The position numbers were made by a program, and so were the translations under genes. From an uncultured Acidimicrobiaceae bacterium (GTDB lineage Bacteria; Actinomycetota; Acidimicrobiia; Acidimicrobiales; RAAP-2), in contig CAZTQJ010000001.1 in the NCBI GenBank assembly GCA_964615615.1, positions 1 through 40,617 of the forward strand: a DNA stretch of 40,617 nucleotides. The letters are read 5' to 3'. Positions within the stretch are counted from its first letter, which is position 1. Every line of letters starts with the position of its first letter. Under the pieces are notes generated by a model, which had not been told where the DNA came from, searched no databases, and worked only from the letters and a program-made list of their open reading frames with translations. This document shows, one piece after another, positions 1-40,617 of the stretch.

Positions 1-55
1 GATATCTACGTCATTAACCCTGAGGGATTGGACTGGCTTATTGCGGAGGGTCGCC
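1..55. repeat. 55-bp exact terminal direct repeat, identical to 40563..40617. This is a circular-contig overlap or terminal redundancy.
   Basis: Direct comparison of the first and last 55 nt shows identity. The helicase reading frame is continuous across the junction. Confidence 0.95.
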
Positions 56-1110
56 TTAAGAGCCTCCAGGTGGACACCCTCGTCGTTGACGAATCGTCAA
101 AGTTCAAACACACGAGCACGAAAAGGTTTAAGAATCTCAAACCTCATCTTAATAAGTTTGCACGACGGTGGATTCTTACTGGTACTCCGGCCCCCAATGG
201 ACTCATGGACTTGTTTGGACAGATCTTTATACTCGACCTTGGGCGATCTTTTACACCATACATTACGAAGTTCAGACTTGAGTTCTTTAACTCCGTCGGT
301 TTCGGTGGCTATACCTATGTCCCCAAACCTGGGACCGACGAACGAATCCATGAACTGCTAAAGCCTATGACGCTAAGGCTTGAGGCTCGCGACTACTTGG
401 AGTTGCCGCAGCTCATCGAGAACCGTATCGTGGTGGAGCTCCCCCCAGCGGCACGGAAAATCTATGACGAGATGGAGCAGCAACTCTTCGCCCTCATTGA
501 CAACGGGGAAATCGCTGTCGCACAGACTGCGGCGGCGGCGAGCATCAAGTGTAGGCAGGTCGCGAATGGGGGAATCTACCGGCAGCTCTCCTACACCCCA
601 GCCGTGAACAGCGACCGCTGGCAAGACATACACATGGAGAAGGCGAATGCAGCGTATGACTTGGTCGAAGAACTGAACGGCCAGCCTGTCCTCGTAGCCT
701 ACGACTTCGAGCATGACAAGGCCCGGCTTCTTCATGTGTTTGGGAAGGACACCCCATACATCGGCGGCGGTGTCTCCGCAAAGCGTGGCGCAGAGATCGA
801 AGCCGAGTGGAACCTGGGGAACATCCCCGTCCTGCTGGTCCACCCAGCCGCCGCAGGTCATGGCCTGAATCTGCAGGGGAATTGCCAGCACGTTCTCTGG
901 CACAGCATGACTTGGGATCTGGAACTCTACGAGCAAACCATCGCTCGAGTCTTGCGCCAGGGTAACAAGTATGACCATGTCACAGTCCATCACATTATCG
1001 CCAAGGACACCATCGATGAAGTCATGATGAGGGCTCTTCGGGGCAAGGCGAAGGTCCAAAATCGATTGCTTACAGCTCTTAAGGAATATCGCGAAGTGCG
1101 AGAAAAATAG
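1..1110 (+). CDS. SNF2/DEAD-like helicase, C-terminal part. The N-terminal part is at 40239..40617 and the joined gene is about 477 aa.
   Basis: In frame from base 1. Motifs VVDESSKFK (DExx), LTGTPAPNG, HPAAAGHGLNLQ and QTIARVLRQGN are present. Stop at 1108-1110. Confidence 0.9.
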   Translation, partial: DIYVINPEGLDWLIAEGRLKSLQVDTLVVDESSKFKHTSTKRFKNLKPHLNKFARRWILTGTPAPNGLMDLFGQIFILDLGRSFTPYITKFRLEFFNSVGFGGYTYVPKPGTDERIHELLKPMTLRLEARDYLELPQLIENRIVVELPPAARKIYDEMEQQLFALIDNGEIAVAQTAAAASIKCRQVANGGIYRQLSYTPAVNSDRWQDIHMEKANAAYDLVEELNGQPVLVAYDFEHDKARLLHVFGKDTPYIGGGVSAKRGAEIEAEWNLGNIPVLLVHPAAAGHGLNLQGNCQHVLWHSMTWDLELYEQTIARVLRQGNKYDHVTVHHIIAKDTIDEVMMRALRGKAKVQNRLLTALKEYREVREK

Positions 1111-1123
1111 TTGCAAAAAAGAT

Positions 1124-1152
1124 TTGCGCCTGAGGGCAAAAGAACCCATAAT
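1124..1152 (+). promoter_or_regulatory. Sigma70-like promoter candidate, TTGCGC-N17-CATAAT.
   Basis: The -35-like hexamer is at 1124-1129, followed by a 17-nt spacer and a -10-like hexamer at 1147-1152. It sits just after the helicase stop. Confidence 0.3.
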
Positions 1153-1203
1153 TTAGGTCCGGTAGCAAACAGAAATTCAACTGAGGTTCCAGTGACAAGT
1201 TTC

Positions 1204-1767
1204 ATGGTTATGAGTGACGCGAACAGGCACACCATCCTTCGGGTGGACGTTGGACCGAAGTTCACGTCTTTCATTGGCCGCACCAAGAAGAACATTGACT
1301 TCCGCAAACTGCCGAACAAGCAGTTTGAGGAAACCTATCTCTGGCAGTATCCGGAGCACCCGATTGTCGGGTTTGCGAATTCGATCTGGAGCCTGCTGGA
1401 ATATGGGGTGCTCGTCACCCTTCGCGCGAGGAAGATCCTCGCCACTTTCTCCAAGGAGCCTTCAATGGCCTCTCCCACCCCCACCCCTGCCAAGATCGCC
1501 AAGGACGCTGAGTTCAAGCCCGTCAAGGCTCCCAAGGTCGCGGCCCCTGTCGCCGAGGGCTCCGAGCCCAAGGCTCGTGGCAAGCGCATCGAGAACCAGA
1601 AGATCCGCCTCCTGGTCAAGAGCAACCCCAAGCGTCCCTCCAGCGCCTCCTTCGGCCGCTTCGAGCTCTACACCACCAACAAGACCACCGACGAGTTCCT
1701 CGCCGCTGGGGGCCTCAGCGCCGACCTGCGCTACGACGTCGAGCACGAGTTCATCGAGCTCTACTAG
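1204..1767 (+). CDS. Hypothetical protein with an N-terminal region of unknown function, a Lys/Ala/Pro-rich segment and a C-terminal domain of about 55 aa paralogous to 27294..27536. A strong in-frame internal start lies at 1465.
   Basis: The frame is open from 1111, and the first ATG is at 1204. AAGGAG lies 6 nt before the ATG at 1465. In 1465-1767 I counted 91 of 100 sense codons ending in C or G and none in A. The alignment I.LLV..NPKR...ELY..T...F.AAGG.SADL..D...FI.L matches the 27294 protein. Confidence 0.6.
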   Translation: MVMSDANRHTILRVDVGPKFTSFIGRTKKNIDFRKLPNKQFEETYLWQYPEHPIVGFANSIWSLLEYGVLVTLRARKILATFSKEPSMASPTPTPAKIAKDAEFKPVKAPKVAAPVAEGSEPKARGKRIENQKIRLLVKSNPKRPSSASFGRFELYTTNKTTDEFLAAGGLSADLRYDVEHEFIELY

Positions 1768-1828: not shown

Positions 1829-2599
1829 GTGATCATTTACATCCCCACACTAAACCGCACACGCAAGCAGATCACCTACGAGAACCTACCCGCCGCCATC
1901 CGCAAGATTGCGGTCTTTGTTGCGAATGAGGCTGATGCGTCGATGCTCAAGCAGAAATACCCACTGTGCAAGGTCATGGTCTGCCTGAAGCATGGCATTG
2001 GCCGGACCCGCCAGTTCATCATCGACAACCACGACTTCGCGAACAGCGGCCCCCAGATCTGCATGCTCGACGATGACCTGAAGTTCTTTGACCGTCGCGA
2101 GGATGACCCCACGAAGTTCGAACTGGCAGGGGAAGAGTCCATTATCGCCATGTTCAACATGATCGCTACCCAGCTTCTGAACCACGCGCTCGTGAGCGTC
2201 ATGACCCGAGAGGGTGGCAACCGGAACACCGAGAACAGCTACAACACTCGTTGCCTGAGAGTGCTGGCCTATGATGCCGGCATCCTACGGCAGGAGAACA
2301 TCAAGTTCGACCGACTACCTGTCATGGAAGACTTTGATGTTGCCCTCCAGCTTCTCCGCAAGGGCTACCCGAATGTCAGCCTCGCCGCATGGGTGCAGGA
2401 TCAGGGTGGCAGCAACACAGCCGGAGGCTGCTCCGGCTATCGCACCATGGAAGTCCAAGCCGAGGGAGCTCATGGCCTGCGGGGATACCATCCCCAGTTC
2501 GTGCGCATCGTAGAGAAAGAGACCAAGGTCGCCTGGGGCGGCAAGAAGCGCACCGATGTCGTGGTCGCTTGGAAGAAGGCATTCAATGCGGACGTCTGA
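1829..2599 (+). CDS. GT-A-fold glycosyltransferase-like protein, resembling TET/JBP-associated glycosyltransferase (TAGT)-type phage proteins.
   Basis: GTG start. The N-terminus IYIPTLNR is Rossmann-like. ICMLDDDLKF is a DxD-like motif, and VMEDFDVALQLL is also present. It is the first gene of the 1829-5317 cassette. Confidence 0.5.
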   Translation: MIIYIPTLNRTRKQITYENLPAAIRKIAVFVANEADASMLKQKYPLCKVMVCLKHGIGRTRQFIIDNHDFANSGPQICMLDDDLKFFDRREDDPTKFELAGEESIIAMFNMIATQLLNHALVSVMTREGGNRNTENSYNTRCLRVLAYDAGILRQENIKFDRLPVMEDFDVALQLLRKGYPNVSLAAWVQDQGGSNTAGGCSGYRTMEVQAEGAHGLRGYHPQFVRIVEKETKVAWGGKKRTDVVVAWKKAFNADV

Positions 2600-3422
2600 G
2601 CTCTGGGCCTTTATCCGCGAGCGACACAATATCTACCTCGCGAAAACCGCTGGCCTTCCCAAGCCTTGGACCCAGGACAAGATCCTGGGTTCTTACCGTT
2701 TCTGCAATATGTATCGGGAGTTGGACTCGGTGACCCTATGGGTGGCTGAGAACTGGCGCAAGCCGCATGAATGGGACAACGACCTCTGGTTCGCTATGGT
2801 CGTGGCCCGACTGGTGAACTGGCCCGACACGCTGGAGATGATTGGCTACCCTGTTCCCTACGACAGCCACCGTTTCGTGAACGAGCTTCACTGCCAGAAG
2901 GCCCTCGGCAAAAAGGCGTTCAGTGGGGCATACATCGTCAGCACCAATGGTCATGCCATGGACAAAGCCGAGTATCTCGACAAGTATGTCCTGAAGCCCC
3001 TGTGGGATAACCGAGCCACCATCCGGCCCACGGAAGGCGACCACCTTGAGGACTTCTTCAACCGTCTCAACAAGTATAACGGGATGGGAAGTTTCATGGC
3101 TGGGCAGGTGATTGCGGATGCGAAATACGCTGGATGCCTCTTTAACGCACCTGATTGGTGGGCGTGGGCAGCTAGTGGACCGGGTAGTCGCAGGGGTCTC
3201 AACCGGGTCACCAGCCGTCCTGTTGATGCATCGTGGCCCGGTAACACATGGCACAAAACACTGTCGGAACTCAAGGTGCAGATCGACCACTTCGTGAACG
3301 CCGCTGGCTGGCCTGAGCTCCATGCCCAGGATCTCCAGAACTGTCTCTGCGAGTGGGATAAGTATGAGCGGACTCGGTTGGGCGAGGGCAAGCCCCGCTC
3401 CGGCTACCCTGGAGGTCTGTGA
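2586..3422 (+). CDS. Alpha-glutamyl/putrescinyl thymine pyrophosphorylase (aGPT-Pplase)-like protein. This is a tentative family call.
   Basis: The ORF is open from 2556, and ATGs lie at 2556 and 2586. The N-terminal motif PKPWTQDKILGSYRFCNMYRELDSVT, followed by DLWFAMVVARLVNWPDT, matches my recollection of this family. Its stop overlaps the next start as TGATG. Confidence 0.45.
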   Translation: MRTSELWAFIRERHNIYLAKTAGLPKPWTQDKILGSYRFCNMYRELDSVTLWVAENWRKPHEWDNDLWFAMVVARLVNWPDTLEMIGYPVPYDSHRFVNELHCQKALGKKAFSGAYIVSTNGHAMDKAEYLDKYVLKPLWDNRATIRPTEGDHLEDFFNRLNKYNGMGSFMAGQVIADAKYAGCLFNAPDWWAWAASGPGSRRGLNRVTSRPVDASWPGNTWHKTLSELKVQIDHFVNAAGWPELHAQDLQNCLCEWDKYERTRLGEGKPRSGYPGGL

Positions 3423-4414
3423 TGTATGTGATCCAGGCACTGAATGTGAACCATGCTCTCGCCGCTGGCCTGCGCTATCTGAACGAGCATGGGGAGCATG
3501 AAGAAAGCCGAAACGGTCCGGTGCTGGTCTCCCCCACGCCGGTCACTACGATGTATGCGATGCCCGAGCAGCGGGTGATGTTCAACCCCTTGCGAGAGGC
3601 CAACCCTTTCTTCCACCTTATGGAAGCCCTGTGGATGATGGCTGGCCGAAACGACCTCGCATGGCCCCTCTACTTCAACAAGCGATTCGTCGATTACAGT
3701 GACGACGGACAGACCATCCACGGAGCCTACGGCTACCGATGGCGGCAGCACTTCGAGATTGACCAGATCCACCAAGTCGTCAAGGAACTGCAGAACAACC
3801 CCAACTCTCGCCGCGCTGTGATCGGGATGTGGGATCCCGTTGCCGACTGTGGGGCGAACTTCCTGGACCTTCCCTGCAACACGACTATCTACTTCCGTGT
3901 GCGAAGTCGGTGCCTTGACATGACGGTGTGCAACCGTAGCAATGACATCTACTGGGGAGCCTATGGTGCGAACGCTGTCCACATGAGCATCCTGCAAGAG
4001 TTTGTCGCCAGGGCTCTCGGCCTGGGCATGGGATACTACTATCAAGTGAGCAACAACTATCACCTCTATACCGGCCTCATCGAGTTGGAGTCCAATTCTG
4101 CACGTGAGACGATGGCCCACCATAGCCTCAAGAATGACCACTACTCGGCACCCTTCATTGAGACGGTCAGCACCTATCCGCTGATGACCACAGCCGCTAC
4201 CTCATGGATGGCCGACCTCGCCCAGTTCATGACCCTGCCCACCAAGCGAGATGGATACACCGACCCCTTCTTTACCGAGGTGGCTGTGCCGATGTTCTGT
4301 GCATGGCATGAACGCAAGCAGAAAGTGAGTGACGGAGCGCACTGGGTATCACAGATTGCCGCTGATGACTGGCGGCTGGCCTGCACTGAATGGATGGATC
4401 GGAGAGTCAAGTGA
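3422..4414 (+). CDS. Divergent thymidylate-synthase-superfamily enzyme, either ThyA-like or a deoxypyrimidylate hydroxymethylase-like enzyme.
   Basis: GGAGG lies 6 nt upstream of the start. Motifs EALWMMAGRND, YGYRWR, NPNSRRAVIGMWD, LPCNTTIYF (catalytic Cys context), CNRSNDIYWG and NNYHLY are colinear with E. coli ThyA. Confidence 0.75.
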   Translation: MYVIQALNVNHALAAGLRYLNEHGEHEESRNGPVLVSPTPVTTMYAMPEQRVMFNPLREANPFFHLMEALWMMAGRNDLAWPLYFNKRFVDYSDDGQTIHGAYGYRWRQHFEIDQIHQVVKELQNNPNSRRAVIGMWDPVADCGANFLDLPCNTTIYFRVRSRCLDMTVCNRSNDIYWGAYGANAVHMSILQEFVARALGLGMGYYYQVSNNYHLYTGLIELESNSARETMAHHSLKNDHYSAPFIETVSTYPLMTTAATSWMADLAQFMTLPTKRDGYTDPFFTEVAVPMFCAWHERKQKVSDGAHWVSQIAADDWRLACTEWMDRRVK

Positions 4415-4929
4415 GAGAAGAACTTCTTAAGCGTGTCGATTTCATCCGCAAGGGTGGGAACACCAAGCGATATCACACTATCAACACCATCAACGAGAAT
4501 ACCGTGGCGCACCACAGTTTCGGCGTGGCGTGGATGATCTGGATGATTGGCGTCCCCACTGTCAATCTCCTGATGGCAGCACTGGCTCACGACCTCGCCG
4601 AGCAGGTGACTGGGGACATATCCTCCCCCACCAAGCGGCGGTTCCCTGAGCTGGCCTCTATGGTTCAACTCATGGAGGATGAAGTCCTTGACTCCCACAA
4701 TATGTTCTACCAGCTTAACGAGGAAGAGGCTCGCACTCTTAAGATGGCTGACCGTATGGACGGGATGCTGTTCTGCACCAATGAATTCGAACTGGGGAAC
4801 AGGGCGATTATCGAAGTCTACAACCGATACGTCTCCTATGTCGCCGAACTGAAACCCGTAGGCCGCGAGTGGGAAGTGTATCAGGCCATTCGCGCCATTA
4901 TGATGAGGCACACCGATGCAATCAGCTAA
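4390..4929 (+). CDS. HD-domain phosphohydrolase, YfbR-like 5-prime-deoxynucleotidase family.
   Basis: Motifs KRYH..NENTVAHHSFGVAW and ALAHDLAEQVTGDISSPTKR are present. The alternative GTG start at 4411 overlaps the upstream stop as GTGA. Confidence 0.75.
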   Translation: MDGSESQVREELLKRVDFIRKGGNTKRYHTINTINENTVAHHSFGVAWMIWMIGVPTVNLLMAALAHDLAEQVTGDISSPTKRRFPELASMVQLMEDEVLDSHNMFYQLNEEEARTLKMADRMDGMLFCTNEFELGNRAIIEVYNRYVSYVAELKPVGREWEVYQAIRAIMMRHTDAIS

Positions 4930-5317
4930 TAACAAACAGGAAGGTGGGTCTCACTATGCAGGCGAGTATCAGCACTGGGACTTCGTCTGTGAGTGCCTGG
5001 GCGGTAGGTATCTGGAGGGGAACCTCACCAAGTATATCGCTCGCTGGCGCAAGAAGAACGGGCTCCAGGACATCAGGAAAGCCCTGCACTACTTACTCAA
5101 GATTCGCGAGCTCTTTGCGGACGGTGATCTGACAGCCCCGCCTATTGCTCGGCGATCAGGCTCCGTCGAGCGTTTCTGCCTTGTAAACAATCTCGGCTCC
5201 CTAGAGAGCCGAGTGATGTGGATGGCAGCGAACTGGGAAGGAACGCGTGATTTGGATGTTCTCCAATCGGTGCTTCAGGAACTGGAATCTGAGGCCCTGT
5301 TGATCGCTATGTCCTAG
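4916..5317 (+). CDS. DUF3310-like small phage protein.
   Basis: Motif GGSHY...YQHWDFV...GNLTKYIARWRKKNGLQDIRKALHYL is present. It overlaps the upstream gene by 14 nt. Confidence 0.6.
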   Translation: MQSANNKQEGGSHYAGEYQHWDFVCECLGGRYLEGNLTKYIARWRKKNGLQDIRKALHYLLKIRELFADGDLTAPPIARRSGSVERFCLVNNLGSLESRVMWMAANWEGTRDLDVLQSVLQELESEALLIAMS

Positions 5318-13618: not shown

Positions 13619-14281
13619 TTATCCCTTCTTGTTGGTCCAGCCGTAGGTCCACGCATTGACCCCGGTGTTCAGAGAGTTGGAAATCGCATTGGCAGAGGCG
13701 ATCTGTGCCGCACCGGAGGCGTTCGCCGCTCCCATGAGGTTGTTGGAGAAGGTGTTCGTGTAGTTCTGGCTCGCCTGCTGATTGGCGGCGTTCGCCTGCT
13801 GACCTAGGCCAGCGATGGAGGACAACCGGCCGAACTGCTGATTGTTCTCTTGGTTCCACCGGCTGAAGGAGTTGTTGTATTCCTGTGAGGCGAAGTCCTG
13901 GTTGTAGCGGCTGAGTGCCTTCAGCGTCCCGCCACCAAGAACTCCTCCGCGAGCCGCCGCAGATCGCTCAATAGCCTTCGCACCTTCTGACATACGGAAG
14001 TCATAGCCAGGGTCCTTGATGAAGTCAGCCATCGTGAACCGACGGTTGAGGTCGCCGCCTGCGGCAGTCAACGATCCCAACTGGCCGAGAGCCGTTGCTC
14101 CAGCCAATCGCCAGGGCTCCTGATCAGCACGAGTCTGGTCAAACTGTGAAGTGGCGAGTGCGTTGGAGGCAGATGCCGCCGTAGACTGACCAGCCGCCGC
14201 AGATCGTGCCGCACTTGAAGAAATCAGCGCACTACCGACTGTGCCGACTACGACGGCCCCAGCAACCCATCCACTCATCAT
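13619..14281 (-). CDS. Internal virion protein (220 aa, P22 gp7-position analogue) with an N-terminal hydrophobic helix.
   Basis: It has the N-terminus MMSGWVAGAVVVGTVGSALI and a Q/N/A-rich remainder. The call rests on synteny and size. Confidence 0.55.
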   Translation of the reverse strand: MMSGWVAGAVVVGTVGSALISSSAARSAAAGQSTAASASNALATSQFDQTRADQEPWRLAGATALGQLGSLTAAGGDLNRRFTMADFIKDPGYDFRMSEGAKAIERSAAARGGVLGGGTLKALSRYNQDFASQEYNNSFSRWNQENNQQFGRLSSIAGLGQQANAANQQASQNYTNTFSNNLMGAANASGAAQIASANAISNSLNTGVNAWTYGWTNKKG

Positions 14282-15081
14282 TGACCCCCGTAGATTCGTG
14301 CTTCAAGTTTGGCGATGTCGCGCTCATTGTCAGGATTCGGATGAACGGTGTGGGCGAGAACATCATCGGCCGCAAAGATCACACGCTTAGTTCCAGGCTT
14401 GGTGAGCACGAAGGTGGGAGGGACGATGCCAGCCGCCCCTTCCTCGGTGATAATGACAAGACGGCCCTGGAGCATAGTAAGTATACACTCTTCGCGGTAT
14501 TCAGGCGTGGTAAATAACGTCCCTTTTTGTATTTTTGCGACACGAATGTAAAGACCGTCAGTGAATAGGTGCTCGAGGCCGTGATCAGCCTGGGGCATCA
14601 GAAGGAGCTCACGCTCCACTAGGTCAATAGCAGTCCGGAGCTCTTCGCAAGAGCCCCCATTGTCAACGAGCGAAATGAGGGAGCAGAAGGAGTTCTGAAC
14701 ACCGATGGAGGCCAGCACCTGATACTCAGCCCGACGAGCCTCGTTGACAGCACACCGATAATCGATGGTGATTTCCTCGTCAGCCTGGATGGGGCGCAGA
14801 GTTCTCATATAACCGCCGCCATCTGGGAGTGCTACCGTTTCAGCATTTGGCTCGTCGGAGTGGTTGGTCTTGTAGCCCAGCGGAGTTCGGTTGAGGCCGA
14901 GGCGCACCGCACCCACAACCTCATTCGCCGCATAGTCCTCGATGGCGAACACGCCCTCGCCATGGATCGGGGACTTGGCGACGATGAACTTGTAGTAGTC
15001 ATCGGGCATGGGGACGCAGTCTGCTCGTTCAGCAGAGTGAGCGGCCACGAGGTCGGCCGACATCCCGATGTCTACGAGCAT
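14278..15081 (-). CDS. SET-domain (lysine methyltransferase-like) protein fused to a C-terminal cupin-like beta-barrel region.
   Basis: Motifs SPIHGEGVFAIEDY, TNHSDEPNAE and ADEEITIDYR are present. The ATG at 15081 lies 12 nt after the upstream stop, and the longer ORF to 15201 overlaps the upstream gene. The C-terminal half (HLFTDGLYIRV..GTLF..H..ECILTMLQGRLVI) looks cupin-like. Confidence 0.7.
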   Translation of the reverse strand: MLVDIGMSADLVAAHSAERADCVPMPDDYYKFIVAKSPIHGEGVFAIEDYAANEVVGAVRLGLNRTPLGYKTNHSDEPNAETVALPDGGGYMRTLRPIQADEEITIDYRCAVNEARRAEYQVLASIGVQNSFCSLISLVDNGGSCEELRTAIDLVERELLLMPQADHGLEHLFTDGLYIRVAKIQKGTLFTTPEYREECILTMLQGRLVIITEEGAAGIVPPTFVLTKPGTKRVIFAADDVLAHTVHPNPDNERDIAKLEARIYGGQ

Positions 15082-15092
15082 ACTGTCAAAAC

Positions 15093-15428
15093 TCACACGA
15101 CCTCCGCAATCGCACCCTGGATGCTGATGGAAGTAGCGGCACTCGCCAGAGCCTGGAGCAAGCCCCCAGCCTGAAGCACCTGACCCTGAGCCTCGAAGCA
15201 CTCGTAGGTCTCGCCTGCACCGATGGAGCGAGCAGAGACCAGGGTGTTCGTGGCCGAGGCCGTTCCCGCAGAAGGCACGAGGTAGACGGTGACGGTCAAG
15301 GCCCCGGCAGTCGTGTTCGTGAAGGTAAGCTTCTTGATCAGCGAACGAGTGTTCGCCGGAGCCGTGTAGTAGGTCGTCGCAGTTGCGGCAACCTGGGCAG
15401 CAGTGATGGTCTTAGGGGTGACGCTCAT
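15093..15428 (-). CDS. Hypothetical virion-module protein (111 aa).
   Basis: AGGAG lies 7 nt before the ATG. The protein is T/A-rich and beta-like. Confidence 0.6.
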   Translation of the reverse strand: MSVTPKTITAAQVAATATTYYTAPANTRSLIKKLTFTNTTAGALTVTVYLVPSAGTASATNTLVSARSIGAGETYECFEAQGQVLQAGGLLQALASAATSISIQGAIAEVV

Positions 15429-30809: not shown

Positions 30810-32841
30810 CACCTTCAAGCTTCTCCCTGATGTCCACAATGCGATGTTGGACAAAGCCGCTGAGTCTGGGCTACCGCCTGACCTCGCAAAGCGGCTGTCC
30901 TTCAAAGCCTACCTCGCAGAAGAGGTCGGTAGCCTGGGCCTCCCCATCCAGAAGGCTGGCTTCAAGATTCCCTACCATGACTTCCAAGGCCTCCAGACTG
31001 CGTTCTGGAGGTTTCGGTTTCTGGAGCGCACCAACGAAGGGTTCGCCGCACTCACCGACAAGAAAGATGTCCGCTACCTCCAGCCCAAGAAGTCGGTCAA
31101 TGAGATCTACATACCGCCGATTATCAACTGGGGCAAAGTGATAGCTGACGCCACCATCCCGATTGTTATTACCGAGGGCGAGTTAAAAGCCGCCTGTGCC
31201 TGTGCCGTAGGGATACCCACGCTGGGCCTGGGAGGGGTCTGGTGCTTTCGGTCGGCGGCCCAGCACATGGTAATGCTACCCCAGTTCTCGCAGGTCACCT
31301 GGACCCAGCGGATGGTCTACATTTGCTATGATTCCGACGCCTCTAGCAACCACATGGTAATCCAGGCTGAGAATGCCCTGGCCCGGGAGCTCCTGGGCCT
31401 CGGTGCTATACCAATGATTGCACGGCTACCATCCCTATGCCCTCCACGTAAGACTGGTCTGGACGACTTCATTGTGTCCGAGGGCCTGGAGGAGTTCAAG
31501 CGCATCATTGAGCGAGCAGTTCCATGGAAGGCTGGGCAAGAGCTTCATGCCCTCAACGAGGAGGTAATCTATGTCAACAATCCGGGCTTGGTTCTGCGAC
31601 TTGATAATTTGCAGCGTCTGGCTCCTCGTGCCTTCACGGACCATGCGTTTGCGACTCGCAGGTATTTTGAGGAAGTTATCACGACAAATGGCACGAAGAT
31701 GGTTGAGCGTTCCGCCGCCCAAGAATGGCTCAAATGGCCGAGTCGCGCAACGGTAGAGAAGGTGACCTACAAACCTGGTCTCGCACGAATAACGGACCAG
31801 GGCGAGCTAAACATCTGGAGGGGCTGGGGTTGCACTCCTAGTGAGGGCGACATCAAGCCCTGGCAGGCACTCCTTTCCTACATATTCCCGACCGATGCCG
31901 AGCGGCTATGGTTTGAACGATGGCTGGCCTACCCTCTCCAGCACCCTGGGACCAAGATGGCAACGAGTGTCCTGATATGGGGCCGCGTTCATGGGACCGG
32001 GAAGTCAACGCTGGGCTACACGATGTTCAAGATCTACGGCGAGAATGCGGCTGAGATTCAAGACAAAGAACTCAGTGCCAGCTTCAACGAGTGGGCCGAG
32101 AACAAGCAGTTCGTACTGGGCGACGAAATCACTGGCGGTGACAAGCGAGCCAGTGCCGACCGCATGAAGTCCATGATTACCCAGAAGCAGTTGCGGCTGA
32201 ATGTCAAGTATATCCCCAGCTACACGATTCCCGACTGCATAAACTACCTCTTCACAAGCAACCATCCCGATGCCTTCTTCCTTGAGGATGCCGACCGCCG
32301 GTTCTTTATCCACGAGGTCAAGCAGAGGCCAATGCCCGATAGTTTCTACGAAAAGTATAACAAGTGGATGAATGGGTCCGGCCCCCATGCGCTGTTTCAT
32401 CGACTACTCAACTTAGACATGGGGGACTTCAATCACCAAGCCCCTGCCCCTATGACCGAGGCCAAGCAGACAATGATTGACAGCGGACGTAGTGACCTCG
32501 GCACATGGATCGCCATGCTCCGGGACACGCCAGAGGTCGTGCTACGGCTCGGCGAAAAGGTGCTCCCGTATAAACTCTGGACAGCCAGCGAGCTCCACGC
32601 TCTCTACGATACCCGCCAAACTGGGAAGGTCACTGTAAACGGCCTCTCGCGCGAGTTAGCCCGAGCAGGGTTCGAGCGAGTCTACAAGGGCCAGCCCTGC
32701 CAGACCTCTATTGGCGGCCAACGACTTTGGATGATCCGGCCATTTAACGATCTCAACATGACCGGCCTGCAACTCGGCCAACTCTACACCAAAGAGAGGG
32801 GACTGATATGGCCGAAAACCTCTTCTGCGTCCTCGGAGTAA
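30802..32841 (+). CDS. DNA primase-helicase (TOPRIM domain plus D5/P4-like SF3 P-loop NTPase).
   Basis: Motifs IVITEGELKAACA and ICYDSDASSN (TOPRIM), GRVHGTGKST (Walker A) and FVLGDEITGG (Walker B) are present. Confidence 0.85.
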   Translation: MSSTFKLLPDVHNAMLDKAAESGLPPDLAKRLSFKAYLAEEVGSLGLPIQKAGFKIPYHDFQGLQTAFWRFRFLERTNEGFAALTDKKDVRYLQPKKSVNEIYIPPIINWGKVIADATIPIVITEGELKAACACAVGIPTLGLGGVWCFRSAAQHMVMLPQFSQVTWTQRMVYICYDSDASSNHMVIQAENALARELLGLGAIPMIARLPSLCPPRKTGLDDFIVSEGLEEFKRIIERAVPWKAGQELHALNEEVIYVNNPGLVLRLDNLQRLAPRAFTDHAFATRRYFEEVITTNGTKMVERSAAQEWLKWPSRATVEKVTYKPGLARITDQGELNIWRGWGCTPSEGDIKPWQALLSYIFPTDAERLWFERWLAYPLQHPGTKMATSVLIWGRVHGTGKSTLGYTMFKIYGENAAEIQDKELSASFNEWAENKQFVLGDEITGGDKRASADRMKSMITQKQLRLNVKYIPSYTIPDCINYLFTSNHPDAFFLEDADRRFFIHEVKQRPMPDSFYEKYNKWMNGSGPHALFHRLLNLDMGDFNHQAPAPMTEAKQTMIDSGRSDLGTWIAMLRDTPEVVLRLGEKVLPYKLWTASELHALYDTRQTGKVTVNGLSRELARAGFERVYKGQPCQTSIGGQRLWMIRPFNDLNMTGLQLGQLYTKERGLIWPKTSSASSE

Positions 32842-33134
32842 CGCCCTCCGTCACTCAAGACCAGCTTGCCGTCGCTTTCCGCGATGTTAGCCGGGAGTGC
32901 CATCCTGATATTGGCGGCGACCCTACCTCCTACCAAGAAGTAGTTGATGCCTACAACGCACTGAAAGACCCTGCGAACCGTGCCGCCTATGTTCAGTGGC
33001 TTGAGTTAACACAGGATCAATGCCCGAGTTGCAAAGGTCTCGGGATGCGCTGGCAGCAGCGAGGGTTTCGGGGCGGCACGTTCTTCTTATGCACCACTTG
33101 TAAAGGAGCTGGATTCCATGAACGCTGTTCTTGA
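32808..33134 (+). CDS. J-domain protein with a DnaJ-type CxxCxGxG zinc finger (mini-DnaJ).
   Basis: Motifs LFCVLGV...CHPDIGGD (HPD), CPSCKGLG and CTTCKGAG are present. Confidence 0.75.
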   Translation: MAENLFCVLGVTPSVTQDQLAVAFRDVSRECHPDIGGDPTSYQEVVDAYNALKDPANRAAYVQWLELTQDQCPSCKGLGMRWQQRGFRGGTFFLCTTCKGAGFHERCS

Positions 33135-35545: not shown

Positions 35546-35746
35546 ATGCCCAATGACGAAACCCTGCGCTCTTGGCGGACACTTGACCGCCAGATTTTGC
35601 ATCTAAGCGAGAAGGAGCTGTGGGAACTTCTTAAACTAGAGCACAGCACCGCACGACGTCGCTTGTTCATAGCCCGAATCTTCGGGAGAGCCAACAAACT
35701 CCGAGCAACACGGGAGTTAAAAGAGTATTTGAAGGGAAGCCTGTGA
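35546..35746 (+). CDS. Hypothetical protein (66 aa).
   Basis: It is an ORF whose stop overlaps the HNH gene start as GTGA. Confidence 0.5.
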   Translation: MPNDETLRSWRTLDRQILHLSEKELWELLKLEHSTARRRLFIARIFGRANKLRATRELKEYLKGSL

Positions 35747-36150
35747 GCATACCCATAGAAAGGTTTGAATCCAAGATAGCATACTGCCCGATAACTGGGT
35801 GCCATCTATGGACTGGCGGTATTCGTGATGGTTACGGTCAGTTTTGCTTTAATAGTAGAATGATGCAAGCTCACCGCTGGGCCTACGAACAAGCGAATGG
35901 CCCGGTTCCCAAAGAGTTTGATTTAGACCACACCTGTAGAATTCGTAACTGCGTAAACCCTGAGCATCTCCGACCAGTAACTAGGCTTGAAAATCTACAC
36001 GCCCCAGGAAGTCTGCACCACGGCGCAAGAGCTTTCTGTAAGAAATGTGGGGGCTCATACACTATAGAATCTGGAAGAGGCTATTCACAGCGGACTTGTG
36101 TGCCGTGTAAAAGGAGTCGCTATGCGCGTTCCAAGCCCAATAACGATTGA
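35743..36150 (+). CDS. HNH homing endonuclease.
   Basis: Motifs GCHLWTGG..DGYGQF, AHRWAYE and DLDHTCRIRNCVNPEHL are present. Confidence 0.85.
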   Translation: MSIPIERFESKIAYCPITGCHLWTGGIRDGYGQFCFNSRMMQAHRWAYEQANGPVPKEFDLDHTCRIRNCVNPEHLRPVTRLENLHAPGSLHHGARAFCKKCGGSYTIESGRGYSQRTCVPCKRSRYARSKPNND

Positions 36151-37993
36151 TTTCGAAACAGAGAGCATAGAAACCCGACCGAAATACCCGCCCGTCCCAG
36201 TTGGGTTCAGCATCCTGGCGTCCGTAGCAACGAAGGCCCGATACTATGCCTGGGGTCACCCCACTGGGAACAACTGCACTTTTGAGGAAGCCAAGGCTGT
36301 TCTCCTCAAGGCCTGGAACGGAACCAAACCCCTGCTCTTCCACAATGCCAAGTTTGATGTGGATGTGGCCCAGACCCACATGGGATGCGGCGACATCACC
36401 TGGGACCGTGTCCACGACACCATGTTCCTGCTGTTCCTGCGCGACCCCCATGCGGCGACCCTGGCCCTGAAGCCTGCGGCGGCAGAACTCCTTGACATGC
36501 CAGCCGTCGAACGTGATGCTGTCAAGGAGTGGATATTCGCCAATGCCCACCTGCTCCCAGAAGGCACGAAGTTGAGCGAACGCTCCTGGGGCGCGTGGAT
36601 CTCCAAAGCCCCCGGGAAGTTGGTTGGCGACTATGCCATCGGCGATGTGGTCCGCACCCGACTGCTCTTTGACAGGCTTTACGCTGAGGTCGCCGAGCGT
36701 GGCATGGTCCCGGCTTACGACCGGGAACGGGAGTTACTTCCATTTCTTATGGAAAACGAACGCAACGGTATTCGCGTGGATCTCAAGGAATTACGACGAG
36801 ACCTCCGAGATTATGAGGCGGCTTCGGCGAAGTGCGATGCTTACCTTCGTGAGCGTCTGGGCGTGGCAGAACTTAATATTGACAGCGACCCCGAACTTGC
36901 GGCGGCACTCAAGACCTCAGGTGTAGTCAAGAACTTTGCCCAGACCCCCGGTGGCCGGGACAGCGTCAGCAAGCAGAATCTGACCCCTGACATGTTCGAT
37001 GACCAGCAGGTCTCCCAAGCCCTCGGCTACCGGAATCGGCTGGCAACCTGCCTGTCCACTTTCATCCGGCCTTGGCTGATGGTCGCGGAGGCCAACGATG
37101 GCAAGATTTTCACCAACTGGAACCAAGTGCGGACGATGGGTTCAGGCAAGGATAGCAAGGGCGCGAGAACTGGGCGTATGTCCTCCAATCCAAATTTTCA
37201 GAACATCCCCAAGTCATTTTCGGATAAAGACGACGGTTATACGCATCCTGAATTCTTGGGTGTTCCGGAGTTACCGAATATGCGCCGCTACATCCTACCT
37301 GATCCGGGTCAAGTCCTTCTGCATCGTGATTACAATCAGCAGGAACTTAGAATCCTGGCGCACTTCGAGGATGCTTCTCTGTGTGCTGCCTATAATGCAG
37401 ACCCGACCCTTGATGTCCATACCTTCGTCCAAACAGAAATCAAGCGTATTTGTGGGTTGGATCTGGAGCGCCGCGCTGTCAAAATCCTGAACTTCGGCAT
37501 GATCTATGGGATGGGGCTGGCGAAACTTGCCATTGGCATCCACGCCGACCTAGCGATGGCTAAGACCATCAAGAACGCCCAACGCAAGGCCATCCCCGGA
37601 CTAGCGGCCCTGGAGAAGCTGGTGAAGCAAATTGGCTCCACTGGGGACCACATCACCACCTGGGGCGGACGAGCCTACTTTACCGAAGCACCAAAGATGA
37701 TTGGCACCCGCCTAGTCAGCTTCGAATACAAACTGCTGAACTACTTGATTCAAGGAAGTGCGGCGGACGTCACCAAGCAAGCCCTCATCAATTACAGCAA
37801 GGTGCGAAAGCATGGCCGGTTCCTCAGCACCGTCCATGACGAAATCAATATTAGCGTAGCACCCGAGCATGCCGACGAGGAAATGGCCCTGCTCAAGCAG
37901 GCCATGAATTCAGTGCAACTGGATGTTCCCCTGCTGTCCGATGGCAAGATTGGCAAGAACTGGGGCGCACTGAAGTCCTACACGGAGAAGTGA
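36122..37993 (+). CDS. Family A (T7-like) DNA polymerase with a 3-prime-5-prime exonuclease domain.
   Basis: AGGAG lies 5 nt before the ATG at 36122. Motifs DFETES, HNAKFD, DYNQQELRILAH, KILNFGMIYG and VHDEI are present. Confidence 0.95.
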   Translation: MRVPSPITIDFETESIETRPKYPPVPVGFSILASVATKARYYAWGHPTGNNCTFEEAKAVLLKAWNGTKPLLFHNAKFDVDVAQTHMGCGDITWDRVHDTMFLLFLRDPHAATLALKPAAAELLDMPAVERDAVKEWIFANAHLLPEGTKLSERSWGAWISKAPGKLVGDYAIGDVVRTRLLFDRLYAEVAERGMVPAYDRERELLPFLMENERNGIRVDLKELRRDLRDYEAASAKCDAYLRERLGVAELNIDSDPELAAALKTSGVVKNFAQTPGGRDSVSKQNLTPDMFDDQQVSQALGYRNRLATCLSTFIRPWLMVAEANDGKIFTNWNQVRTMGSGKDSKGARTGRMSSNPNFQNIPKSFSDKDDGYTHPEFLGVPELPNMRRYILPDPGQVLLHRDYNQQELRILAHFEDASLCAAYNADPTLDVHTFVQTEIKRICGLDLERRAVKILNFGMIYGMGLAKLAIGIHADLAMAKTIKNAQRKAIPGLAALEKLVKQIGSTGDHITTWGGRAYFTEAPKMIGTRLVSFEYKLLNYLIQGSAADVTKQALINYSKVRKHGRFLSTVHDEINISVAPEHADEEMALLKQAMNSVQLDVPLLSDGKIGKNWGALKSYTEK

Positions 37994-38607
37994 TGCAAGC
38001 CTACGGCGCAACCCGAAAGAAAGCTGATAGCTACCAGAATGAGGACGCATTCACGATTGTTCGTGACCCTGTTCTCGTGGTCGCTATGGCCGACGGATCG
38101 GGCTGCGCCTATGGAGCCGCCCCGCGAGCCCTTTCTGCGCTCACGAAAATGGTCCGCAATACTGAGACCCAGGTGCTGAAGTATTACCCGACATGGGAGG
38201 GCATCGCGAAGGCACTGGACACCTACCTCGCTGGAGGTAGGCAGACGACCCTAGTAGCGGCGACAGTCATTGGGGAGGGCGTCTATGGCGTCCAAGTTGG
38301 TGATTCTCGGTGCTTTCATGTTAAGGACGCCGATCAGTATCTCACCTCGGTAGGTAGCGATACCAAAGAACTCATCGGGAGCGGCGAATGTGCCTGCTCC
38401 CCCATACACACGAAACTTCTACAGAACGAATACCTGATTTTCGCTACCGATGGTGCCTGGAGGGGCTTTGACCGCCTATCACTTAAGAAGGCCAAGCGAG
38501 AGTCCAAGCAATTCAGCGACTTACCCACACTCCTGCTCCGGCAAACCTTGAAATCTGAACACGGTAAAGCAGAAGATGATATGACAATCGTAGTAGTCCG
38601 GAGGTAG
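37993..38607 (+). CDS. PP2C-family (PPM/SpoIIE-like) protein phosphatase.
   Basis: TGATG couples it to the polymerase stop. Motifs YQNEDAF, MADGSG, VGDSRCF, FATDGAW and EDDMTIVVV are present. Confidence 0.75.
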   Translation: MQAYGATRKKADSYQNEDAFTIVRDPVLVVAMADGSGCAYGAAPRALSALTKMVRNTETQVLKYYPTWEGIAKALDTYLAGGRQTTLVAATVIGEGVYGVQVGDSRCFHVKDADQYLTSVGSDTKELIGSGECACSPIHTKLLQNEYLIFATDGAWRGFDRLSLKKAKRESKQFSDLPTLLLRQTLKSEHGKAEDDMTIVVVRR

Positions 38608-40495: not shown

Positions 40496-40617
40496 CTTCA
40501 ATGGTCTGCGGGTGAAGGTGCTTCATGGCAAAGACAAAAACGCCTTGGTGAAACAAGATGCAGATATCTACGTCATTAACCCTGAGGGATTGGACTGGCT
40601 TATTGCGGAGGGTCGCC
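40239..40617 (+). CDS. SNF2/DEAD-like helicase, N-terminal part, which continues at base 56 of the window.
   Basis: Motifs PHQYQQNAIKFL and LDPGLGKTS (motif I) are present. The frame is continuous with 1..1110 through the 55-bp overlap. Confidence 0.9.
   Translation, partial: MTTNYSLKQLSSIAWTPHQYQQNAIKFLLSHAAAGLFLDPGLGKTSIVLGAVKILKAQKLLKRVLVIAPLRVCYGVWPNEARKWLDFNGLRVKVLHGKDKNALVKQDADIYVINPEGLDWLIAEGR
40563..40617. repeat. Second copy of the 55-bp terminal direct repeat.
   Basis: Identical to 1..55. Confidence 0.95.

Follow-up and report, generated by a model that had tools for sequence, protein, structure and literature searches.

The window analysed here, a 40,617-nucleotide contig (CAZTQJ010000001.1) from the assembly of an uncultured Acidimicrobiaceae bacterium, is a complete circular phage genome of 40,562 bp, bases 1-55 being identical to 40563-40617, and at the end of its plus-strand replication block it carries a five-gene cassette predicted to modify the phage DNA (Table 1). 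The products are a glycosyltransferase of the TAGT family, a stand-alone member of aGPT-Pplase clade 1 (hereafter HEL, from the Pfam name HMUDK_hel), a pyrimidine hydroxymethylase with the thymidylate synthase (TS) fold, an HD-domain nucleotidase and a DUF3310 protein; TAGT and aGPT-Pplase were reportedly defined by Iyer et al. in 2013. An earlier sequence-only reading of this DNA had described five tightly packed or overlapping plus-strand genes between 1829 and 5317, and both the open reading frames and their junctions were confirmed. Its five family assignments were correct as well: every protein scored above the curated Pfam threshold, with PHROG in agreement, and profile placement put the first two genes in TAGT (PF20691) and HMUDK_hel (PF18723), not in unrelated families.

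The genes are packed as follows. The TAGT gene starts at GTG 1829, with GAGG just before it, and its stop codon (2597-2599) lies within the HEL gene, which starts at ATG 2586 and overlaps it by 14 nt; HEL homologues of about 278 aa support this start. The HEL stop and the start of the hydroxymethylase gene share the sequence TGATG, which sets the latter at ATG 3422, and the hydroxymethylase stop (4412-4414) falls inside GTGA, so that the HD gene begins at ATG 4390 or GTG 4411. Finally, the HD and DUF3310 genes overlap by 14 nt.

Table 1. Cassette genes and associated replication genes of the phage genome
Feature	Position	Strand	Matches and remarks
TAGT-family GT-A glycosyltransferase, 256 aa	1829..2599	+	Pfam PF20691; phrog_842
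Stand-alone aGPT-Pplase clade 1 / HMUDK_hel protein (HEL), 278 aa	2586..3422	+	Pfam PF18723; phrog_2396
Thymidylate-synthase-fold pyrimidine hydroxymethylase	3422..4414	+	Pfam Thymidylat_synt PF00303; phrog_5131
YfbR-like HD-domain 5'-deoxynucleotidase	4390..4929	+	Pfam PF12917, HD_3, HD; phrog_6047; start may be GTG 4411
DUF3310 protein, 133 aa	4916..5317	+	Pfam PF11753
SNF2-family helicase, C-terminal part	28..1110	+	Pfam SNF2-rel_dom and Helicase_C; Walker A GLGKT in the ORF that spans the circular junction
Conserved hypothetical protein	1111..1767	+	Between SNF2 helicase and cassette; Pro/Ala/Lys-rich middle, conserved C-terminal segment
Family A DNA polymerase	36098..37993	+	Pfam DNA_pol_A, E=1.2e-54

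Regarding the hydroxymethylase, it matched PF00303 with 85.7 bits and phrog_5131 with E=2.5e-118, and its best PDB match was the CMP 5-hydroxymethylase MilA (E=3e-26, versus 6e-13 for ThyA). The TS motifs noticed in the sequence are real: in the alignments with MilA and ThyA, C153, within LPCN, is the catalytic cysteine, and R173, S174 and D176 are the ligands of the phosphate and the pyrimidine. The sequence-only reading had left the substrate uncalled, because the segment YGAN did not align cleanly with the PFN loop of ThyA; with a one-residue insertion allowed, Asn185 falls on Asn177 of ThyA, a column occupied by Asp in MilA. Across the TS superfamily, the residue in the ThyA Asn177 position sets the choice of base, uracil with Asn and cytosine with Asp. 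C153, R173, S174, D176 and N185 are invariant, as is the whole of YGAN across the clade, and Asn185 with its neighbours is unchanged in 20 clade members, an M6-type enzyme included. The window enzyme shares 45-47% identity with its counterparts in M6-, Ab18- and Bordetella CN1-type phages, and the modified bases of M6/Ab18-type phages derive from 5-hydroxymethyldeoxyuridine (5-hmdU), made by a dUMP hydroxymethyltransferase (PMC5889632, PMC8989533). On a related 45-kb contig, DUF3310 is fused to a dCMP/cytidine deaminase domain in a protein of 309 aa (L007, 9531-10460); the fusion fits a pathway fed by dUMP and ties DUF3310 to pyrimidine nucleotide metabolism. Jointly, Asn185, the M6/Ab18-type clade and the dCMP deaminase fusion point to dUMP as the substrate, and the predicted reaction is the conversion of dUMP into 5-hmdUMP, with a hydroxymethyl and not a methyl product.

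A cytosine pathway of the T-even type, in which a dCMP hydroxymethylase feeds a TAGT acting on 5-hydroxymethylcytosine (5-hmC), would agree with the CMP hydroxymethylase being the best PDB sequence match and with the PHROG label of the TAGT relatives, beta-glucosyl-HMC-alpha-glucosyltransferase. It is nonetheless very unlikely: the specificity position holds Asn185 and not Asp throughout the clade, the clade is that of phages with proven 5-hmdU-derived bases, and the cassette is linked both to a dCMP deaminase, which destroys dCMP, and to a protein family known only from 5-hmdU systems; moreover, no dCTPase appeared in the Pfam scans of the genome. The reading of the enzyme as a dCMP hydroxymethylase was rejected on account of Asn185 and of its clade membership.

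In the M6, PaMx11, ViI, PhiW-14 and SP10 phages, the dUMP hydroxymethylase is followed by 5-HMUDK, a P-loop kinase acting on 5-hmdU in DNA, then by a clade-2 aGPT-Pplase, or amino-acid:DNA transferase (AADT), and by tailoring enzymes. The sequence-only reading had found no P-loop 5-hmdU DNA kinase, an absence that can be tested because the genome is complete, and this held for the circular genome in six frames, in profile searches and in Pfam. A single kinase query, from the Stenotrophomonas phage Sonora, gave a best E of 1.3 with phmmer against the six frames; a profile of 23 kinases, collected next to clade-1 homologues, gave a best E of 0.052 against the six frames of the circularised genome, and this hit was the Walker A of the primase-helicase. 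Pfam scans of the remaining genes revealed no 5-hmdU DNA kinase, and in the Walker A scan the only credible genes with the motif were the primase-helicase, the SNF2 helicase and the terminase. The profile of the clade-2 amino-acid:DNA transferases found no member in the window either (best E=1.3). Given that the two profiles find neither protein, the window lacks both enzymes of the described post-replicative thymidine hypermodification (PMC8989533); with the clade-2 transferase of known chemistry also missing, the earlier proposal of a chemistry unlike the kinase and amino-acid-transferase routes is reasonable. The statement on the kinase holds for the DNA kinase only, DUF3310 being linked in the literature to the nucleotide kinase T7 gp1.7.

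The partners of these genes were compared over viral contigs anchored on the clade-1 protein (80) or on the hydroxymethylase (80), annotated with iterated local profiles; the HEL-anchored set also takes in reference loci and the window, and the TS-anchored count covers the 57 loci, among IMG/VR relatives, with at least 3.5 kb of upstream sequence. TAGT and HEL occur together in 30 of these 57 loci, the kinase and HEL in 14 (9 of them with a clade-2 transferase), and HEL with other partners in 13; hydroxymethylase-anchored loci devoid of HEL were not found (0/57), nor was there any locus with both TAGT and the kinase. The HEL-anchored set contains TAGT in 31 cases, the kinase in 21, an IU-nucleoside hydrolase in 2, and none of these in 36. 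TAGT and HEL are immediate neighbours, in one order or the other, in 46 of 68 loci, as are the kinase and HEL in 30 of 39. The HD gene is a syntenic partner of the hydroxymethylase in most loci, and independent Pfam-annotated contigs present the exact gene order of the window, with clade-1 proteins 60-74% identical to that of the phage. The TAGT cassette is the commonest architecture among the IMG/VR relatives of this hydroxymethylase (30/57) and not an unusual one, and its recurrence, with the same five genes in the same order on many independent contigs and at 45-75% protein identity, is far more than expected by chance.

The loci with other partners contain a radical SAM/SPASM enzyme, a GT-B-like protein or a 328-aa family. 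The latter, which has no Pfam match, directly precedes the clade-1 gene in L012 (2290-3276) and has homologues in L022, L024-L026, L028, L034, L035, L044, L045 and L075, for 11 loci without TAGT or kinase; it may represent a third kind of tailoring enzyme. Stand-alone radical SAM/SPASM and GT-B-like proteins lie between the SNF2 helicase and the clade-1 gene (L027, 4119-5093; L052, 3655-4986), and in L079 (3324-5063) TAGT is fused to a radical SAM/SPASM enzyme in a protein of 579 aa. These partners suggest a further elaboration of the sugar or of the base.

Some HEL genes reside outside such cassettes. On two jumbo-phage contigs of about 463 kb (L011, 6105-7834; L013, 5105-6834), a clade-1 protein 58% identical to that of the window is encoded by a gene overlapping that of an IU-nucleoside hydrolase (PF01156), and neither a hydroxymethylase nor TAGT or the kinase occurs in the 12.8-14.8-kb loci examined there. 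In about ten further HEL-anchored loci (for instance L017-L021, L023, L031, L057 and L068), several of them on contigs of 90-455 kb, the clade-1 gene stands without any cassette genes.

As for the glycosyltransferase, TAGT matched PF20691 with 75.5 bits (cut-off 27.5; E=7e-21; profile positions 1-186 of 205) and phrog_842 with E=7.5e-41. Its AlphaFold2 (AF2) model, with a pLDDT of 95.2 and a pTM of 0.92, has the GT-A fold, and the top PDB matches in Foldseek were the GT-A enzymes TarP, TarS and GnT-I, with a probability of 1.0, together with other GT2-like enzymes. The DDD motif seen earlier in the sequence is real; it corresponds to D81-D83 and is invariant in all 56 distinct homologues and in a further alignment. 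Stand-alone homologues number 280, and no TAGT-HEL gene fusion was found among the close ones. The hydroxymethylase gene lies 0.8 kb downstream in the same operon, and this linkage is the one counted above in 30 of 57 related loci.

Members of PF20691 include the T2/T6 enzyme by which glucosyl-hmC receives its second glucose, and the solitary TAGTs count as uncharacterised (PMC13216743). Phage GT-A enzymes glycosylate 5-hmC in DNA and match in structure the putative base-J glucosyltransferase of T. cruzi; in metaviromes, the GT-A matches split about evenly between neighbourhoods with a 5mYOX dioxygenase and neighbourhoods with ThyS (bioRxiv 10.1101/2023.12.21.572611). In addition, many phage dioxygenases, often adjoining glycosyltransferases, are now thought to make 5-hydroxymethyluracil (5-hmU) (PMC13229309). 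From its family, fold, operon position and strict exclusivity with the kinase, TAGT is predicted to transfer a sugar from a nucleoside diphosphate sugar (NDP-sugar) to the hydroxymethyl group of 5-hmdU in DNA. Alternatively, TAGT could modify an acceptor other than DNA, for instance a protein or a polymer of the cell envelope; the DNA would then contain unglycosylated 5-hmdU, as in SPO1 or SP8. Its nearest solved structures, TarP and TarS, are indeed teichoic-acid glycosyltransferases, and most viral contigs bearing a glycosyltransferase in the survey of Pyle et al. do not have it beside base-modification genes (bioRxiv 10.1101/2023.12.21.572611); nevertheless, this possibility is judged quite improbable, because the TAGT gene overlaps that of HEL by 14 nt inside an operon for nucleotide metabolism, its linkage is repeated in dozens of loci and in both gene orders, and its strict exclusivity with the kinase implies a common substrate.

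HEL, in turn, matched PF18723 (formerly aGPT-Pplase1) with 150.3 bits (cut-off 25; E=1e-43; profile positions 5-277 of 281) and phrog_2396 with E=1e-59. The aGPT-Pplase-like assignment of the sequence-only reading is right as to the family, and does not make HEL a proven transferase, since the protein, a paralogue of the amino-acid:DNA transferases, belongs to clade 1 and is a homologue of M6 gp55 (36% identity with M6 ORF055). M6 gp55 is dispensable in vitro, where gp54 (the kinase) and gp51 (the clade-2 transferase) reconstituted the first steps, and no activity has been demonstrated for it (PMC8989533). The Pfam name HMUDK_hel reflects the SP10 fusion of the kinase with this domain (PMC5889632), and implies a protein adjoining or fused to a P-loop kinase. 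This is not so in the window and, because the kinase is found in only 14 of the 57 TS-anchored loci, association with it does not define the family.

The AF2 model of HEL (pLDDT 94) is all-helical and resembles the helix-hairpin-helix (HhH) glycosylases. The top PDB match in Foldseek was PaMx11 gp46 (8z2n_B; probability 1.00, 257 aligned columns, TM 0.47), followed by OGG-type HhH DNA glycosylases and a queuine-salvage glycosylase; in BFVD, the TM values were 0.91 with phiRSL1, 0.84 with PhiW-14 and 0.76 with the SP10 5-hmdU DNA kinase, whose C-terminal half has this fold, and 0.43-0.57 with clade-2 transferases. The link with gp46 needed structure comparison, as the HEL profile searched against PDB sequences returned noise only and no transferase. 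PaMx11 gp46 flips its target nucleotide into a pocket and uses Cys247 as the nucleophile (PMC11472151). In clade-2 transferases the catalytic Cys goes together with an essential Glu close by. The hhalign comparison of HEL with clade 2 is weak (probability 1.9%, E=0.026, about 14% identity); it pairs GMGSFMAGQVIAD of HEL with GFGPWIGFKIAD of clade 2, and LQNCLCEWD of HEL with ETVLCKWK of clade 2, and at this low identity it sets Cys255-Glu256 on the catalytic Cys motif.

Conservation within HEL is independent of the partner. Cys255, Glu256, Lys259, Asp178, Asp47 and Arg44 are invariant in 129 distinct proteins, whatever the neighbouring gene, and of the two sequence sub-types each occurs with both TAGT and the kinase, the nearest neighbours frequently crossing partner classes. 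Clade-2 transferases have a metal-binding Glu-Thr pair just upstream of the Cys (PMC13458397); at the weakly aligned positions the window protein has Gln251-Asn252, and about 40% of HELs have Glu-His. The loss of the Glu-Thr pair was considered as an adaptation to kinase-less, phosphate-free systems and discarded, given that the Gln-Asn and Glu-His sub-types both accompany TAGT and the kinase in similar proportions. The idea of HEL as a subunit that directs the kinase or the glycosyltransferase to DNA, specific to each partner, was weakened by the interspersed partner classes and by the invariant residues common to all; it was weakened further by M6 gp54, which works without gp55 (PMC8989533), and by the retention of enzyme-like invariant Cys, Glu, Asp and Lys residues. 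HEL is probably an enzyme and not a passive adaptor, and since its conserved residues do not track the partner, its target is probably one that all these systems share, in the simplest case 5-hmdU in DNA, and not the product of the kinase or of the glycosyltransferase. The comparison of loci makes HEL a fixed component of the 5-hmdU core, with or without the kinase and not as its accessory, and suggests that the Pfam name is misleading.

Two other roles of HEL deserve consideration, the first of which takes the sugar as an activating group: TAGT would glycosylate the base, the clade-1 cysteine would attack C6, expel the sugar and add a nucleophile or a hydride (the latter giving thymine), and the base in the virion would not be a glycoside. 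Such a route would explain why TAGT and the kinase exclude each other and take the same position next to HEL; it is in keeping with the gp46 fold of HEL and with Cys255 aligned with the catalytic Cys motif of clade 2, and in about 14 of 35 loci with the kinase and HEL no clade-2 transferase was detectable, so that HEL could be the only transferase there. Furthermore, gp51 with borohydride turns 5-phosphomethyldeoxyuridine (5-PmdU) into thymidine (PMC8989533). The invariant residues and sub-types of HEL, however, are the same across partners, which is hard to square with pockets specific for a phosphate or a sugar; a glycoside does not leave readily, the in vitro product was formed without M6 gp55 (PMC8989533), and the phage MW202897 has TAGT without HEL nearby. 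On balance, sugar activation appears unlikely.

The second possibility is that HEL reverts part of the 5-hmdU to thymine, or sets the sites left unmodified, while TAGT glycosylates the rest, for a genome with both thymine and glycosyl-5-hmU. HEL is present in 57 of 57 loci of the hydroxymethylase clade regardless of the tailoring enzyme, with conserved residues that do not depend on the partner; Cys-dependent exocyclic-methylene chemistry gives thymidine if a hydride is supplied (PMC8989533), and PhiW-14 and SP10 do produce mixed genomes of thymine and hypermodified base. The conversion of 5-hmdU into thymine within DNA is an unexplained step (PMC5889632). On the other side, neither a cofactor domain nor a partner able to donate the hydride is evident, the hydroxyl does not leave easily unless previously activated, and the jumbo-phage HELs adjoin an IU-nucleoside hydrolase, with no hydroxymethylase in the 12.8-14.8 kb examined. 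This role, too, is thought improbable, if only slightly less so than the previous one.

With regard to the last two proteins of the cassette, the HD protein matched PF12917 with 54.7 bits (cut-off 25.9; E=1.3e-14), and AHHS and AHDLAE are present in its translation; as judged from its family, it would deplete the competing pool of thymidine nucleotides. The DUF3310 protein matched PF11753 with 31.5 bits (E=1.8e-7) and several PHROGs labelled "nucleotide kinase", these over residues 1-66 only, and BLASTP gave a short match of 36 residues with T7 gp1.7 (E=0.005). DUF3310 has been linked to T7 gp1.7, a nucleotide kinase without a P-loop (PMC10700055), and the window protein is possibly a kinase domain of this type acting on 5-hmdUMP.

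The reading that accounts best for these data, and the one held as probable though far from certain, is the pre-replicative synthesis of 5-hmdU followed by its post-replicative O-glycosylation. The family memberships, the gene linkage and the absence of the kinase are observations, from which we infer all of the enzymatic steps and the final product. In this pathway, the TS-fold enzyme would transform dUMP into 5-hmdUMP, the HD nucleotidase would remove the competing thymidine nucleotides, and the DUF3310 protein may help to phosphorylate 5-hmdUMP; the family-A polymerase would then incorporate 5-hmdUTP instead of dTTP. On the replicated DNA, TAGT would use an NDP-sugar to form O-glycosyl-5-hmdU, an analogue of base J, and the glycosylated genome would be shielded from the host nucleases. 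The glycosyltransferase would thus take the place held by the P-loop kinase, along with the clade-2 transferase, in phages of the M6, ViI and PhiW-14 types, and the strict exclusivity of TAGT and the kinase indicates that the two act on the same substrate. HEL would belong to the invariant 5-hmdU core and not to the variable tailoring, and most likely flips out 5-hmdU and acts on it via Cys-Glu.

Several points weigh against glycosylated 5-hmdU as the outcome. The only biochemically defined PF20691 member from a cultured coliphage extends glucosyl-hmC by a second glucose and does not place the first sugar on a hydroxymethylated base, and the solved folds nearest to TAGT are wall-teichoic-acid glycosyltransferases, TarP and TarS, one of which is phage-encoded, so that a non-DNA acceptor is conceivable. 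The choice of a hydroxymethyl over a methyl product comes from clade membership only, and the connection between DUF3310 and a kinase from the 36-residue match. The pathway also leaves the universally conserved clade-1 protein without a definite task; in the Manatee Spring phage (MW202897.1; L004), an uncultured phage with a circular genome of 40,378 bp and thus of the size and layout of the window, the 8.7 kb examined have the order TAGT-hydroxymethylase-HD-DUF3310 and lack a clade-1 gene. As no such gene lies between the others or close by, TAGT does not strictly need the clade-1 protein at its side.

The system brings together two known kinds, namely the 5-hmdU core of the thymidine-hypermodifying phages and the TAGT glycosyltransferase of the TET/JBP and T-even systems. 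With M6 and the other Yuavirus phages, PaMx11, ViI, PhiW-14 and SP10, the window shares the pre-replicative core, a nearby PolA and the same clade-1 family. The order in Yuavirus is PLP enzyme, radical SAM enzyme, P-loop kinase, clade-1 protein, Nmad, TS, HD, small gene, DUF3310 and polymerase; the core order HEL-TS-HD-DUF3310 is alike in the window, where TAGT stands exactly at the position of the kinase. Unlike the M6-type phages, the window has no P-loop kinase, clade-2 transferase, or PLP, radical SAM and FAD tailoring genes, and its predicted product is an O-glycoside, in place of a group derived from an amino acid or a polyamine.

Base J of kinetoplastids, made by the thymidine hydroxylases JBP1/2 and the GT-A glucosyltransferase JGT, is of the same type as the predicted product, a glycosyl-5-hydroxymethyluracil, and TAGT belongs to the kind of GT-A enzyme with a structural match to JGT (Pyle et al.). 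The routes differ: kinetoplastids oxidise selected thymines in DNA, whereas here 5-hmU is predicted to be made at the nucleotide level, before replication and genome-wide, and no dioxygenase is present in the window. The T-even system, with its gp42 dCMP hydroxymethylase, dCTPase, deoxynucleoside monophosphate (dNMP) kinase, alpha/beta-glucosyltransferases (GT) and T2/T6 TAGT, follows the same logic, in which a TS-fold hydroxymethylase is combined with removal of the competing canonical nucleotide, with a nucleotide kinase of the phage and with glycosylation after replication, and PF20691 is also the Pfam family of the T2/T6 beta-glucosyl-HMC-alpha-GT (PMC13216743). The differences are the base, predicted to be uracil from Asn185, and the clade-1 protein, which has no counterpart in T-even phages; because no GT-B alpha/beta-GT is present, the window TAGT would have to add the first sugar.

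The closest gene neighbourhoods are those of Pyle et al., where 5mYOX(TET)/GT-A and ThyS loci likewise cluster a GT-A enzyme with a generator of 5-hydroxymethylpyrimidine (bioRxiv 10.1101/2023.12.21.572611; Cell Rep 2024). The characterised examples act on 5-hmC that a methyltransferase plus TET have made, and the ThyS-linked class was counted and not dissected; in the text consulted (bioRxiv 10.1101/2023.12.21.572611), the constant clade-1 protein and the strict exclusion of the kinase are not mentioned. Among sequenced phages, the Alphaproteobacteria phage PhiJL001 (AY576273) encodes HEL (gp19), TAGT (gp22), TS (gp24), HD (gp25) and DUF3310 (gp26) upstream of PolA, and the Brevibacterium phage LuckyBarnes encodes TS, two TAGT copies and HEL (gp38-gp41); both differ from the window in gene order and virion type and have extra genes, Nmad5 in PhiJL001 and a second glycosyltransferase in LuckyBarnes. 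The Nmad5 protein of PhiJL001 (gp23; L003, 5836-6435; PF18757, E=1.7e-16) is encoded between TAGT and the hydroxymethylase, as in M6-type phages, and is absent from the window; a 2025 paper returned for the term Nmad5 reportedly deals with an anti-Tmn counter-defence protein in a Dhillonvirus phage (PMC11846954).

Two elements were thus already known: the GT-A and ThyS neighbourhoods, counted in metaviromes by Pyle et al., and the gene set itself, carried by PhiJL001, which was sequenced in 2004. The literature searched contained neither the chemistry of the product, nor the strict exclusivity of TAGT and the kinase, nor the clade-1 protein as a core constant independent of the kinase; for glycosylated 5-hmU in phages it returned only kinetoplastid, synthetic or method papers, with no demonstration of glycosyl-5-hmU in a phage using the ThyS route and no report on the DNA chemistry of PhiJL001 and LuckyBarnes.

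As for the rest of the genome, genes for the virion and for lysis are on the minus strand (terminase, portal, major head protein, head-closure, SU10-type adaptor, tail proteins and holin) and those for replication on the plus strand (DUF932, Toprim/DUF5906 primase-helicase, ligase, HNH endonuclease, family-A polymerase, PD-(D/E)XK and VRR-NUC nucleases, and SNF2 helicase). The open reading frame of the SNF2 helicase begins at about 40233, crosses the circular junction and ends at 1110, and in the synteny comparison it is a conserved upstream neighbour of the cassette, just as PolA is linked to the cassette in most related loci. The hypothetical protein that follows the helicase has no Pfam or PHROG match and was not assigned to the pathway; it is 68% identical to its equivalent in L006, and its C-terminus bears a weak resemblance to PhiJL001 gp18 and to a family that other loci have in this place. 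A near-identity DNA search with 20 kb of the window against GenBank phages gave no match, hence no close relative there.

Some features outside the cassette are worth recording. The HNH_3 endonuclease gene (35743-36150, plus strand) lies directly upstream of the polymerase gene, overlaps its start and may encode a homing endonuclease. Between the polymerase and the PD-(D/E)XK nuclease, a 205-aa protein (37990-38607, plus strand), conserved in L006, has weak PP2C/SpoIIE phosphatase-like matches below the Pfam thresholds. Just after the primase-helicase, a 108-aa protein (32808-33134, plus strand) combines a DnaJ J-domain (E=1.3e-10) with part of the CXXCXGXG zinc-finger region. Within the structural module of the virion, a 307-aa protein (14278-15201, minus strand) has a SET-domain match (PF00856, E=2.5e-8); SET domains are those of lysine methyltransferases, which is unusual among tail and head genes. 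Finally, the segment 26001-28000 has the lowest G+C content of the genome (0.488, against 0.55-0.60 elsewhere) and small open reading frames only; it separates the divergent structural and replication modules and is probably an early or regulatory region.

In conclusion, the sequence-only reading of the locus is confirmed as an observation and partly supported in its interpretation. In the most far-reaching form of the proposal, glycosylation and phosphorylation would be interchangeable modules on one 5-hmdU core, base-J-like glycosyl-5-hmdU would extend genome-wide, and HEL would be a Cys-dependent enzyme active on 5-hmdU, possibly the one that forms thymine; this combination is put forward as a speculative and rather unlikely one. 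If 5-hmdU is glycosylated as predicted, many uncultured and at least two cultured phages would carry a glycosylated thymine analogue, so far a hallmark of kinetoplastids, reached by a different route, and their DNA would constitute a class resistant to restriction and CRISPR. It would also provide DNA glycosyltransferases for the labelling of 5-hmU and new targets for modification-dependent defence systems. For the phages that hypermodify thymidine, the constancy of the clade-1 protein makes it a concrete candidate for steps that are still unexplained, including the conversion of 5-hmdU into thymine in DNA.

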